The position numbers and the translations under genes were made by a program. The notes under the pieces are model-generated. The model had not been told where the DNA came from. It saw only the letters and a program-made list of their open reading frames with translations, and ran no database searches. This document shows positions 2,905 to 59,696 of a stretch of DNA of 64,000 nt, piece by piece. Every line of letters starts with the position of its first letter. Position 1 is the stretch's first letter. Origin of the DNA: Octopus vulgaris (lineage: Eukaryota); assembly GCA_951406725.2 (NCBI GenBank), contig OX597818.1, positions 57,846,001 to 57,910,000 of the forward strand, given 5' to 3'.

Positions 2905-2905
<1 letters not shown>

Positions 2906-3752
2906 ATAATTAATCAATATAGGGTGGCAAAAAAATTTTGTAGAATTCTTTTGCCACCAGCGGCCTAGTAGGAAAAAATTAAATAGTCATAAACCATTTT
3001 TACGTTCAACATCACAATCAAGGAACGGCCATAATAGGCCATTCACCCACTAGAAATAACAGCCAAGAGCTTTAACCGCAAAATAACATTAATACCGTAA
3101 GCCAGGAGAAAATTGAAAAACTTTTACCCTGTAATTTCTTAGACGATGCACCGTTTCATCTACCGTTTAATGGTAAACTAACCTGATTAAATTAAATCAA
3201 GCCAATCCACCATAGGCCCTTAGACTCATCAGTAAGAAATAGCCAAATCGGAACAGATATTTTTCACGAGGCATTCCTCTTGCTACCTCGGCAATATCTG
3301 ACCTAAAATTTTCAAATCGTCGCACTCGCGCCAAATTTATCGGCAGCAAATAAATATAAGCCACCGATTCCTTTACGGAATTAACCAGAAAATTCATAAT
3401 TAATCAATATAGGGTGGCAAAAAAATTTTGTAGAATTCTTTTGCCACCAGCGGCCTAGTAGGAAAAAATTAAATAGTCATAAACCATTTTTACGTTCAAC
3501 ATCACAATCAAGGAACGGCCATAATAGGCCATTCACCCACTAGAAATAACAGCCAAGAGCTTTAACCGCAAAATAACATTAATACCGTAAACCAGGAGAA
3601 AATTGAAAAACTTTTACCCTGTAATTTCTTAAAGGGTAAAAGTTTTTCAATTTTCTCCTGGTTTACGGTATTAATGTTATTTTGCAGTTAAAGCTCTTGG
3701 CTGTTATTTCTAGTGGGTGAATGGCCTATTATGACCGTTCCTTGATTGTGAT
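2905..3752 (-). mobile_element. Non-autonomous hammerhead-bearing retroelement (retrozyme-like / PLE-derived): 490-bp unit x ~1.5 plus 120-bp inverted copy
   Basis: 2905-3141 equals 3395-3631 (period 490; one mismatch, G3101 vs A3591). 3633-3752 is the reverse complement of 3501-3620 (two mismatches). No meaningful ORF; (TA)n on both sides; intact hammerhead at 3134-3240. Confidence 0.85.
3134..3240 (-). ncRNA. Type I hammerhead ribozyme with extended stem II
   Basis: Minus strand reads ATTTCTTA [stem I] CTGATGA GTCTA...TAGAT [stem II] GAA ACGG(TGCA)TCGT [stem III] C^ TAAGAAAT [stem I']. All core nucleotides are canonical, the triplet is GUC, and stem I is a perfect 8 bp. Predicted cleavage is between 3142 and 3141. 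Confidence 0.92.
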
Positions 3753-3924
<172 letters not shown>

Positions 3925-9537: not shown

Positions 9538-9894
9538 CGTATACAAAAATTCAAGATCAAATCTTGTGCTTCTGAAAATATAATTTATGTCGTAAGATGC
9601 TCGGGCTGCCACCAAAACTACGTGGGGTCTATGGGACTATCACTCAGACGTAGATGCACTCTGCATCGACAACAGATTGCATTCCCAGAATGTAGAATGA
9701 TACCCTTTAATGAGCATATTGAGAAATGCACAAAGCAACTACTACCACAATTTTTAATATTTCCATTTTATCAATGTGCTATTGGAACACCAACACAAAT
9801 TAGACTAAACAAGGAAACATTCTTCATTGAAAAATATAAGCCCAAACTTAACCACTCTAACATCTTATACAGAGAAATTCACCCCATTAAATAA
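9538..9894 (+). mobile_element. Penelope-like element GIY-YIG endonuclease fragment (5'-truncated)
   Basis: SCASENIIYVVRCSGCHQNYVGS.GLSLRRRCTLH...EH...RLNKETFFIEKYKPKLN matches the PLE GIY-YIG pattern (IY-x-C-xx-C-YVG...R...H...E...P.LN). GAAACCGGTA follows at 10027-10036. Confidence 0.8.
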
Positions 9895-10155
9895 AAGGGA
9901 AAAAAAATATAAAGCGATTATCTCCCTTATAAAAATCGCTTTTTACCTCCCCCTACCTGGAACTCTTCTTTGCACTTCATAACGAAGACATAACACGATG
10001 TTTTGAGAAATTTGAAAAGTTAACACGAAACCGGTAATTTCTTCAAAAATTATGTAACTGTATGAAAAAATGTTATAACAATCTTCTGACATTATGACTC
10101 AAATATATTTTTTAACCGTTTAAAACAAGCCTTCTATAGTTTTTTCACTTTTTAC

Positions 10156-10240
<85 letters not shown>

Positions 10241-13934: not shown

Positions 13935-14425
13935 TTTGGGGAAGGCGGGGAGTCAATTACATCGACCAGCAGTGTTTATCGACCACGAAAGGTGGAAGGG
14001 CAAAGTCGATGTCGGCAGAATTAGCACTCAAATCATGAAGACCGACTTAAATACCTATTTCTCTACTACCCACATGGAGCTAAACATAGAGGGGACAAAC
14101 AAGGACAGTCAAACGGATTAAGTCGATTACATCGACCCCAGTGCGTAACTGGTACTTAATTTATCGACCACGAAAGGATGAAAGGCAATGTCGACCTCGG
14201 CGGAATTTGAACTCAGAACGCAACGGCAGACGAAATACCTATTTCTTTGCTACCCACAAGGGGCTAAACACAAAGAGAGCAAAAAAGGACAGTCAAACGG
14301 ATTAAGTCGATTCGATCGACCCCAGTGCGTAACTGGTACTTATTTAATCGACCCCAAAAGGATGGAAGGTAAAGTCGAACTCGGCAGAATTTGAACCCAG
14401 AACGTAAAGACAGACAAAATACAGA
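13935..14425 (-). mobile_element. SINE family A, three tandem bodies
   Basis: Repeated 'cgaaaggatgaaaggcaa.gtcgacctcggcggaatttgaactcagaacg' with 'aaatacctatttct' junctions at about 14055 and 14240. Confidence 0.85.
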
Positions 14426-33033: not shown

Positions 33034-33453
33034 CTGTTTCTTTACTACCCACAATGGGCCAAACACAGAGGAAAAACAAGGACAGACAAACGGATTAAGC
33101 CGAGTAATCGACTCCAGTGCATAACTGGTACTTAATTTATCGACCCCGAAAGGATGAAAGGCAAAGTCGACCTCGGCAGAATTTGAACCCAGGACATAAA
33201 GACAGACAAAATACTACTAGTATTTCTTTACTACCCACAAGCGGCTAAACTTAGAGAGGACAAACAAGGACAGACAAACGGATTAAGTCGATTATATCGA
33301 CCCCAGTGCGTAACTGGTACTTAATTTATCGACCCTCGAAAGGATGAAAGGCAAAGTCGACCTCGGCGGAATTTGAACTCAGAACGTAACGGCAGACGAA
33401 ATACCGCTAAGCATTTTGCCCGGGGTGCTAACGTTTCTGCCAGCTAGCCGCCT
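33034..33453 (-). mobile_element. SINE family A, head plus two tandem bodies
   Basis: Family A consensus, with a junction at about 33220. Confidence 0.9.
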
Positions 33454-37776: not shown

Positions 37777-38877
37777 TCATACATTGATTCCATGTGACAT
37801 GGTATTCATGACAATAGTATTTTGTTGGGTTTCTGTATTATTTCGCTTTGGTTCAAGGAGGGCGTGTCCAGTTCGACGATTCCATTTCTTTTTCGAGTTA
37901 TCAAATAATAAGCATATTTCTTTTTTGAAGTTATCATTTAGCCATCCATAGAGAAAAGGATTGATGCATGAAGAACTCATGGCAAAACTTTTAAGAAACA
38001 AGTCTGTTACTTTGAAAAACTTCCCTTTCACAAGATCGGGGTCAAATTCAACAAAAAGACTGAAAATATTCCATGGAAGCCAGCATATTGTAAAGAGTGT
38101 AACTATAGATACAAGAATCCGATTGGTCCTCTGACTTCGTCTATGCTCAGTTTTTTTCACTGGCCTGTTTTTCAAAACAGTATAGATACGGCTGTAGAGA
38201 ATTGAAGTAGCAATAATGGGAATGCAGAACTGCAGCAGAAATACAGACACTGTGTAAACTCTCCTGATTACTTCTGAAGGCCATTCTTCGCCGCATAGTA
38301 TTTTATCAAGTTGTATAGCTGGTATATTCAATACAACAAGCTTACTGTATATCACCATAGGAATAGCAGGACCAATTGCCAGAAGGGCAATCAGTAGCGT
38401 TAAGCGAAGCGCCATTTTGTTACTCATCCGCTTTCTAAAAGGATAAACAATTAGAATATAGCGATCAATTGCAATCATTAAAATACACATAGTTGAATCG
38501 TATATGGGGATAGCAAAAGAGGAATTAAATACAGTACACATAATATTGCCAAATACCCAGTTGTCGCTGAGTTGATAATGAAGCTGAAAGGGTAAATTAA
38601 AAATACACATGCCAATATCCGAGATAGCTAGGTTGGCAATGAAAATGTTTGTGACTGAATGAAATTGTTTGTTAGTCATTATTATTAAAGCTATAGTTAT
38701 GTTTCCAAAAATTCCAATTAACATGATTAGTACGTAGACAAATATTATCACAATTTTCCATTGTAATTTTTGTGTATAGTCATATTCCATCTTAATGGTG
38801 AAATTATTATCTTCAAAATAATCTTCGGATAAATTAAACTTTTGTAAAAATTCATTATATTTCAGCATGTTATCCAT
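37777..38877 (-). CDS. Class A neuropeptide GPCR, sNPF/prolactin-releasing-peptide/NPY-receptor-like, 366 aa, intronless CDS
   Basis: Seven hydrophobic segments with GN (TM1), NLAISD (TM2), W.FG..MC, IAIDRY, C.EEWPS (ECL2), CWLP and AMSS.C.NPFLYGWLNDNFKKE. N-terminal sequons NLS and NFT. First ATG at 38877 lies in a strong accATGG context; the ORF-track start at 38910 is TTG. Confidence 0.93.
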   Translation of the reverse strand: MDNMLKYNEFLQKFNLSEDYFEDNNFTIKMEYDYTQKLQWKIVIIFVYVLIMLIGIFGNITIALIIMTNKQFHSVTNIFIANLAISDIGMCIFNLPFQLHYQLSDNWVFGNIMCTVFNSSFAIPIYDSTMCILMIAIDRYILIVYPFRKRMSNKMALRLTLLIALLAIGPAIPMVIYSKLVVLNIPAIQLDKILCGEEWPSEVIRRVYTVSVFLLQFCIPIIATSILYSRIYTVLKNRPVKKTEHRRSQRTNRILVSIVTLFTICWLPWNIFSLFVEFDPDLVKGKFFKVTDLFLKSFAMSSSCINPFLYGWLNDNFKKEICLLFDNSKKKWNRRTGHALLEPKRNNTETQQNTIVMNTMSHGINV

Positions 38878-39332
38878 GGTTATAGTTACGGTAAGCAAAG
38901 AACCAATCAATCAATCAATCAATCAATCAACCAATGTCTTCTCAGTGGCTCCTTTGTCAAATCTTTCTGAAATTTATGTAGCCATATATTTTTTCTGAAT
39001 TCTGGAAAACAGTCAATTAGTGTGCTATCCGGAATATAATAACGATATATCATCAATATAATAACGAAACCAGCGGTATTAGGATGATAATTACATAAAT
39101 ATTGTTGTGTTAAAATTTTATTCAAAACAAATGTCAAAATAATGAATTATGAAAGGTTACCTTTACATTTGTATACGCGTCGGTCGTCCGAATTGCGCGT
39201 AATACAGAAACTTTCCGGTACGATATATATTGTTATTTAACATTTGCATTTGTCGATAAAAATTGAAACCAAAATAGCAGGGATGTTATTAATTCTTGAT
39301 TGGATTAACCTGCCTAAATGATTTCATAAGTG

Positions 39333-58587: not shown

Positions 58588-59696
58588 GGTTTCAAATTTT
58601 GGTAGAAGGCCAGAAATATTGAGAGCGGGGTTAAGACGATTACATCGACCCCAACACTCAACTGGTACTTATTTCATCCACCCTAAACGTTATGGAAGAC
58701 AAAGTAGATCTCTGCGAAATATGAACTCAGAACATAAAGACGGACGATATGCAGGGGTAGTAACGATTCTACCAGATCACCGCCTTATCTCTTTATTCAT
58801 ATTTACAATCAAAGAAGGCGGTGAGCTGGCACAACCGGTAGCACACCGGACGAAATGCTTAGCACTATTTCGTCTGCCGCTACGTTCTGAGTTCAAATTC
58901 CGCCAAGGTCGACTTTGCCTTTCATCCTTTCGGGGTCGATAAATTAAGTACCAGTTACGCACTGAGGTCGATGTAATCGACTTAATCCGTTTGTCTGTCC
59001 TTGTTTGTCCTCTCTGTTTTTAGCCCCTTGTGGGTAGTAAAGAAATAGGTATTTCGCCCATCGCTACGTTCTGAGTTCAAATTCCGCCGAGGTCGACTTT
59101 GCCTTTCATCCTTTCGGGGTCGATAAATTAAGTACCAGTTACGCACTGAGGTCGATGTAATCGACTTAATCCGTTTGTCTGTCCTTGTTTGTCCTCTCTG
59201 TGTTTAGCCCCTTGTGGGTAGTAAAGAAATAGGCATTTCGCCCATCGCTACGTTTTGAGTTCAAATTCCGTCGCGGTCGACATTGCCTTTCATCCTTTCG
59301 GGGTCGCTGAATTAAGTACCAGTGAAATTCTGGGGTCGATGTAATCGACCACTCCACTCCCCCAAACTTCAGGCCATGTGACTATAATATAAAGAATATT
59401 TACGATTAACGGGAAGGTAGATCATCAGTATCATCAACTGTATGCCAAACGACGAAATGGATAAAAGCCCGAAAAAAATATCGATTTCAAATTTTTGGCA
59501 CAAGCCCAGCAAATTCGAATGATGGTATAAATCTGCTATGTCGACTCAGTGTTCAAATAGTACGTATTTTATCGACTTCGAAATTGATAAAAGACGAAGT
59601 TGACCTCGGCGGATTTGTAATCAGAATATAAAGACGGACGAAACGCTTCTAAGCATTTGGCCCGGCGCTCTAACGTATATGCCAGCTTGTCGCCTT
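58588..59696. mobile_element. SINE family A cluster: minus copy, plus-strand trimer (58816-59400), minus copy
   Basis: The trimer has a 184-bp period (Yatttcg at 58866, 59050, 59234). Diverged minus copies lie at 58588-58786 and 59483-59696. Confidence 0.88.

Follow-up and report, generated by a model that had tools for sequence, protein, structure and literature searches.

The inverted repeat at positions 2905-3752 of a 64,000-nucleotide stretch of the Octopus vulgaris genome (contig OX597818.1, positions 57,846,001 to 57,910,000; hereafter the window) is an insertion of a new member of a retrozyme family. Insertions of this family likely record priming from both target ends, in the manner of Penelope-like elements, and, in a minority of copies, run-off of the reverse transcriptase (RT) from cleaved RNA. 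Across the family the 3′ ends of the insertions are fixed and paired, the two arms of an insertion are independent in content, each insertion carries one haplotype, and the inner ends of the arms pile up on one side, just 3′ of the predicted ribozyme cut. The value of these findings lies in the statistics of the family rather than in the single locus.

Anatomy of the window insertion

The sequence is predicted to be a type I hammerhead retrozyme on the minus strand, with a unit of 490 nt and an end at 3631, the first base 3′ of a GUC. A direct repeat with an offset of 490 (2902/2905-3141 versus 3392-3631) breaks at 3142 (G) and 3632 (A); a GTC lies at 3144-3142 on the minus strand, so that 3141 and 3631 are each the first base 3′ of the predicted cleavage triplet. 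We number the unit from nt 1 (3631) to nt 490 (3142). Read along the minus strand, the insertion begins with the inverted arm; after a single extra base come a full unit (3631-3142) and then part of a second (3141-2905), with (TA)n on both sides (the target microsatellite at 2581-2904 to the left and 3753-3918 to the right). The full unit, cut to cut, forms the inner half of arm A and is matched at 99-100% at many loci; the partial unit (nt 1-237, also minus strand) forms the outer half and ends, flush with (TA)n, at the long 3′ end of the family (~236). Arm B (3633-3752, plus strand) carries unit nt 12-131 in the opposite orientation and ends at the family's short 3′ end (131). Where the arms meet (3631-3633), arm A has its inner end at nt 1 (3631), base 3632 is extra, and the inner end of arm B is nt 12 (3633); a 1/12-13 arm junction like that of the window copy recurs at an independent locus, L259.

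The first-pass annotation had described a repeat ending at 3631 at the predicted cut, a 12-nt spacer and a 120-bp inverted copy with two mismatches, and these coordinates are right: the arms at 3501-3620 and 3633-3752 pair over 120 bp with mismatches only at 3519/3734 and 3567/3686, and the spacer (3621-3632) is unit nt 1-11 plus the extra base. The two bases by which arm B differs from its partner are found in 0 and 1 of 163 family units. The inverted arm at 3633-3752 is the family's ordinary short arm and the locus is an ordinary family member, belonging to a minority class in which arm A went through the first cut site and ended at the second passage (5 of 34).

The unit and its predicted ribozyme

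The predicted hammerhead (3134-3240, minus strand) comprises a stem I pairing 3240-3233 with 3141-3134, the motif CUGAUGA (3232-3226), a long stem II, GAAAC (3157-3153) and GUC (3144-3142); stem III is short and its loop palindromic. In unit coordinates the GUC occupies nt 488-490, and stem I forms between nt 392-399 and nt 1-8 of the unit that follows. The region scores better in folding than shuffled sequences (z -3.9), with a minimum-free-energy fold that mispairs the core, and an Rfam search at gathering and E-value thresholds gave no hammerhead match, its matches being only to the palindrome and TA tracts. Among the 163 distinct full units compared, C400, G402, A403, G405, A406, A476, A478 and T489 are invariant, N7 is occupied by all four bases, and N17, the cleavage base, is C or A only. 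This conservation of the core has the pattern that would be expected of a working hammerhead. Stem I yields no covariation, because it is invariant across units. The motif and the conservation of the core in 163 units support the earlier reading of the locus as a hammerhead retrozyme, cleavage being predicted from sequence.

Older subfamilies have GUA in place of GUC (63/163 units). In 13-14 units the loop III palindrome (unit nt 483-484) carries a double substitution by which the palindrome is kept, as expected if the ribozyme works as a dimer.

The units are non-coding, low in GC and tandem, in arrays of up to 7 units per arm. The unit contains no ORF of at least 100 codons and the element no RT plus GIY-YIG ORF, so that the element is non-autonomous. 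Contigs of four sequencing runs that we guess to be RNA contain most of the unit; such contigs cannot show strand, ends or circles.

A dispersed family with two fixed 3′ ends

More than 1000 genomic copies of the 490-nt repeat are present, and many of those scored (the best 40 of 758 candidates, in a DNA search of the octopus's own 2.8 Gb assembly) are 98-100% identical to the unit. Exact 3′ junction patterns like those of the two window arms number 438 for the short end (nt 131) and 873 for the long end (nt 236). The copies are thus dispersed and recently mobile.

From these junctions we drew 200 listed places, chosen on the 3′ junction only, and merging of duplicates left a sample of 174 insertions, all on the first-listed contigs, C1-C4 (L031, L068 and L074, present only in other sets, were kept out). 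Two arms were found in 137 of the 174, the partner being an adjacent inverted 5′-truncated copy. Among 134 scorable partners, 118 combine a short with a long end, two pair like with like and 14 end elsewhere; the unselected partner arms end within 25 nt of (TA)4 in 118 of 118 cases. These frequencies, and the (TA)n target, support the suggestion in the first-pass annotation that the inverted terminus is of the Penelope type.

One haplotype per insertion

In young copies, mismatches at seven polymorphic sites amount to 3/845 between the arms of an insertion and 4/1212 within arms, compared with 27% between loci. Of the changes private to a single locus, 13, spread over 12 loci, are fixed in the two arms alike, and 120 are confined to one unit. 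Away from the cut, both arms end at the same place and in the same unit in 17 of 96 loci (2.7 expected, with a maximum of 10 in 5000 shuffles), while ends at the same place but in another unit are at the level of chance (6/96 loci, 4.0 expected). Such same-place ends fit two cDNAs running to one RNA end; the fold-back of a single cDNA, considered below, also predicts a shared haplotype and symmetric junctions. Equal synthesis length of the two arms gave no peak (7/118).

The template is not always one monomer, since L043, L045 and L049 hold mixed units; in L043 and L049 one intact unit each stands among units without nt 272-277. Such mixed arrays indicate that a heterogeneous multimer sometimes serves as the template, or that the RT moves from one monomer to another.

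A step in the inner ends at the predicted cut

Inner ends were compared in 290 arms, from which cut-off partners and partners with ends of neither class were excluded; the first 40 loci, picked by best whole-unit match and biased toward ends near nt 1, were left out of this histogram and used in the haplotype tests. The first-pass annotation had proposed a histogram of boundaries across copies as a check, and in the family the ends prove non-random, with a step at the cut: 71 of the 290 fall in nt 1-30, where length at risk would predict 20.8 (subfamily-aware ends, an excess reported as 4.2-fold), as compared with 15 against 18.0 in nt 461-490 and 22 against 24.2 in nt 31-60. This excess is one-sided and upholds the proposed link to the cleavage site, but an end exactly at the cut is the property of a minority, most ends lying 5-29 nt downstream, and exact ends at nt 1-3 are not enriched in this sample (2/290, with 1.8 expected). 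A histogram of raw BLAST ends, with 11 ends in nt 1-3, was rejected, as most of these arms run 4-13 nt past the cut.

Exact end patterns were also counted genome-wide in the young subfamily, together with 367 read-through junctions. Nine arm ends in seven loci fall at nt 1 (three of them abut TA, are ambiguous by 2 nt and may be nt 1-3), four at nt 5, six at nt 10 and none at nt 486; nt 489 and nt 490 have at most one ambiguous case each, that at nt 490 being L259, which is really a 1/12-13 junction. The background is 0.7-0.9 exact ends per position. Matches dropped as read-throughs were 3 of 12 at nt 1 (GUA), 2 of 6 at nt 5 and 2 of 3 at nt 489. Thus there is a step at the predicted cut and not a spike on it, nt 1 being no higher in kind than nt 5 or nt 10.

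The stops also depend on how often the cut site had been passed and on what the partner arm did. Stops in nt 1-30 occur in 63 of 220 first passages versus 7 of 64 second passages (p 0.003), and they are coupled between arms: both arms stop there in 22 loci, one in 17 and neither in 79 (odds ratio 24), all 22 both-arm stops being at the first passage of both arms. This coupling at first passage is what a sub-population of cut linear templates predicts. Two loci, L057 (3318/3319) and L039 (1521/1522), are perfect loop-less palindromes centred on the predicted cut, with both arms running from nt 1; the L057 palindrome sits in a GUC array. The 118 arm joins comprise 45 overlaps (1-7+ nt), 17 blunt joins and 56 insertions, some of them visibly templated local repeats, and we take these joins to resemble those made by polymerase-theta end joining.

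Proposed mechanism: two-sided priming on partly cleaved templates

We think it probable that two cDNAs are primed from two sides on one RNA by a borrowed Penelope-type enzyme, that part of the templates are cut by the ribozyme, and that the ends are trimmed and joined. The borrowed RT/endonuclease would likely cut both strands of the (TA)n tract, and two separate cDNAs would then be primed on the one RNA, at nt ~236 for arm A and nt ~131 for arm B. A share of the templates, about a fifth to three tenths at first passage, may be linear RNA whose 5′ end was made by the ribozyme, and on such a template the RT would run off at nt 1; the cDNA 3′ ends would be trimmed and joined, with 0-30 nt lost in end joining of the microhomology type. 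For arms that read through the cut, the template could be a circle, an uncut multimer, or a nicked RNA across which the RT jumped. In the window copy, arm A would have read through one cut site and run off at the next, and arm B would have lost 11 nt.

We incline, by a smaller degree, to a broader proposal: that this genome holds a fossil record of the Penelope reaction, in which one complex copies one ribozyme RNA twice, from two fixed sites and onto both ends of the target, and the state of the ribozyme sets the product. Cut linear monomers would give the minimal two-armed insert (arms of ~nt 20-236 and ~10-131) or the blunt, cut-centred palindromes; circles, uncut multimers or jumps across a nick held together by stem I would give the tandem arrays.

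The main rival, which we regard as unlikely, keeps two-sided priming but has the RNA uncut. The RT would stall at stem I (nt 1-8) or at a hairpin at nt 9-40, A/T palindromes at nt 17-33 would favour joining, and the nt 1 end of the window copy would be one draw from the stall zone. The most frequent end positions, nt 8-10 in B arms and 19-24 in A arms rather than nt 1, are in keeping with stalling, which, as stem I is itself nt 1-8, would look much like run-off; cleavage is moreover dispensable in vitro according to passages of PMC11167929. However, a stall should act alike at each passage, yet the rate drops from 29% to 11%, and independent stalls should not couple between arms as strongly as the odds ratio of 24 indicates. 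Other strong hairpins (184-219 and the long stem II) have at most a weak excess of ends at their 3′ sides, and, with blunt 1/1 joins present and hardly any ends at 486-490, the edge coincides with the cut itself.

Fold-back, chance and artefact

The first-pass annotation had explained the inverted arm by self-priming, in which a single cDNA runs off the cleaved 5′ end and copies itself; in the version considered here, an endonuclease or repair would then trim the hairpin arm at nt 131. Several observations accord with this. Arm B is contained in arm A at 42 of 118 loci, among them the window locus, near-symmetric junctions are enriched, the arms share a haplotype, and passages of PMC8557442 suggest that the tail comes from endonuclease resolution. 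A self-primed arm must, however, begin with sequence that its partner holds and must not exceed the partner in length. At 47 of the 118 loci copying of either arm from the other is impossible (at 12 they have no unit position in common), and at 34 of the 118 the short-end arm exceeds its partner by more than 20 nt. Two independent primings are thus needed for at least 40% of insertions, and fold-back is refuted as a general mechanism.

Variants within the arms lead to the same view. Among 22 hand-picked loci, L151 and L205 have a variant common to both arms whose rank from the 3′ end is equal in the two, whereas fold-back would give mirror ranks; L046 and L063 are also non-mirroring, L130 fits both models and L045 neither. 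The blunt loop-less palindromes likewise speak against a hairpin. At the window locus taken alone, fold-back is geometrically possible and is made unlikely only by the pattern of the family: the folded-back copy would need to end at 131, the site fixed in the family, and its stem would be primed by ~1 base pair. The inverted arm does have, as was stated earlier, the A of the adjacent unit, but the argument from this as to its origin is void, since the A at the place of 3591 (T41 in the unit) is the allele of 163/163 full family units. G3101 reads A at full depth in the contigs of all four DNA runs and, as a private change, cannot tell the source unit of the arm. Taking these points together we hold fold-back to be improbable.

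We find it hard to credit that the nt 1 end is a coincidence within ordinary random 5′ truncation, which would agree with the lack of enrichment at nt 1-3 in the 290-end sample, given nine exact ends at nt 1 against a background of 0.7-0.9 per position and given that both arms of the window locus end inside the enriched zone. A fold-back read or assembly artefact is more improbable still: palindromes between TA tracts are hard to assemble and none of the read contigs examined bridges the 3631/3633 junction (uncovered stretches say nothing), but arm B reaches exactly to the fixed site 131, where (TA)n begins, it has two mismatches to its partner, and the right flank is not the mirror of the left; 137 of 174 sampled insertions are two-armed, L259 repeats the junction, and contigs of other runs join across the inversion points of other copies.

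Penelope-like elements and other neighbours

The window itself holds a 5′-truncated Penelope-like element (PLE) at 9541-10159 (plus strand), lying between microsatellites, with the GIY-YIG endonuclease end at 9541-9894, a degenerate minimal hammerhead, and a short 3′ end ~122 nt after its cut; 150 of 15545 candidates for this family were scored. Other members of this very large family have near-intact ORFs: in a longer relative, L296, a frame of 736 aa scores weakly for RVT_1 and GIY-YIG, in both cases below the Pfam cut-off, and L297 passes for RVT_1. By eye, PLEs of the L296 type have a minimal hammerhead and a CX4CxxC linker, which passages of PMC8557442 assign to the Neptune/Nematis type. 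In 8 of 10 scorable two-armed loci, among 38, this family has one short and one long end, lying +124 to +136 and +163 to +171 after the cut, respectively. It thus shows the same footprint, that of the Penelope type, but as the driver of the retrozyme it is only a candidate lacking DNA similarity to it: blastn gave no significant hit between the retrozyme and the pLTR of the L296 family in 39 PLE loci, and the local score against the L296 PLE was 40.5, compared with a shuffled mean of 52.

At L298 (4405-6748, plus strand) a minimal hammerhead-like motif lies just before a 727-aa frame, which has no Pfam match at E 0.01 and is 20% identical to the L296 protein over 293 aa. L298 is probably a second, distant PLE family and a further candidate driver.

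Two further arrays resemble the retrozyme. L303 (1745-3285) belongs to a second retrozyme-like family with a 528-nt unit and a GUA type I hammerhead motif, two-armed, with 3′ ends at ~281 and ~156; 39 nt of it are 77% like the long end of the 490-nt family (E 0.009, a weak match). L144 (4-2564) is an array of divergent 482-nt tandem units from the same superfamily, with a younger two-armed insertion lying 300 nt away. Elsewhere in the window, a repeat of ~184-190 nt, different from the retrozyme, forms short tandems at 1444-1791, 13975-14422, 33037-33404 and 58878-59349, in which a motif scan of the window found no hammerhead. An uninterrupted 377-codon frame at 37777-38910 (minus strand; Pfam 7tm_1, E 7.9e-53) is an intronless rhodopsin-family receptor gene.

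Relation to known systems

Metazoan non-LTR retrozymes, as described in passages of PMC7229834 and 10.64898/2026.07.22.740005, share with this family tandem units that are non-coding and low in GC and that all bear a type I hammerhead, dispersal as anything from monomers to multimers, and co-occurrence with PLEs. Their units are given there as 150-450 nt, in contrast to the 490 nt found here, and those passages favour a circular RNA intermediate, whereas for a sizeable class of the octopus insertions linear cut RNA looks to have been the template. The passages concerned do not describe inverted two-armed insertions, 3′ ends that are fixed and paired, or ends at the cut; the word "inverted" occurs nowhere in PMC7229834 and once, in a reference title, in 10.64898/2026.07.22.740005.

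The endonuclease-bearing PLEs treated in passages of PMC8557442 are alike in having 5′-truncated partial tandems, an adjacent inverted 5′-truncated copy, a tail at only one end and (TA)n targeting. Unlike them, this family has no ORF, has a tail of ~105 nt and not 30-40, and carries a hammerhead with a canonical core instead of a minimal one. The origin of the tandem and inverted ends of PLEs, and the role of their hammerheads, are called open in the same passages. For Poseidon PAc of Anolis, passages of PMC11167929 report that the purified PLE cuts and extends both target strands in vitro, that two internal RT start sites downstream of the hammerhead define the tail, and that cleavage was not needed for insertion in vitro, with no RNA reads ending at the cut. 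The start sites there are alike on both strands, whereas here the two arms almost always use different sites and the inner ends step at the cut. Retrozymes, inverted copies of PLEs, tails and two RT start sites are thus already in print, as far as these passages go; in searches of the open-licence literature we found no account of paired fixed ends or of a step at the cut site in retrozyme insertions.

If our reading is true, it would provide genomic evidence that hammerheads cleave transposition templates in vivo; the family also suggests cut linear RNA, in addition to circles, as a route by which retrozymes spread. For the study of Penelope inverted ends it would offer a protein-free substrate of 490 nt whose start and stop coordinates are predicted. 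The predictions that the family makes are at the level of single bases: one target end primed at 131 and the other at 236, run-off at nt 1, and a loss of 0-30 nt at the join.

A further parallel is twin priming of L1 elements: each target end supplies a primer, and the product has an inverted 5′ portion joined through microhomology. For L1, the internal site at which the second primer anneals varies, and there is no overlap between arms; in the octopus family, in contrast, both start sites are fixed and the arms overlap, often by several units.
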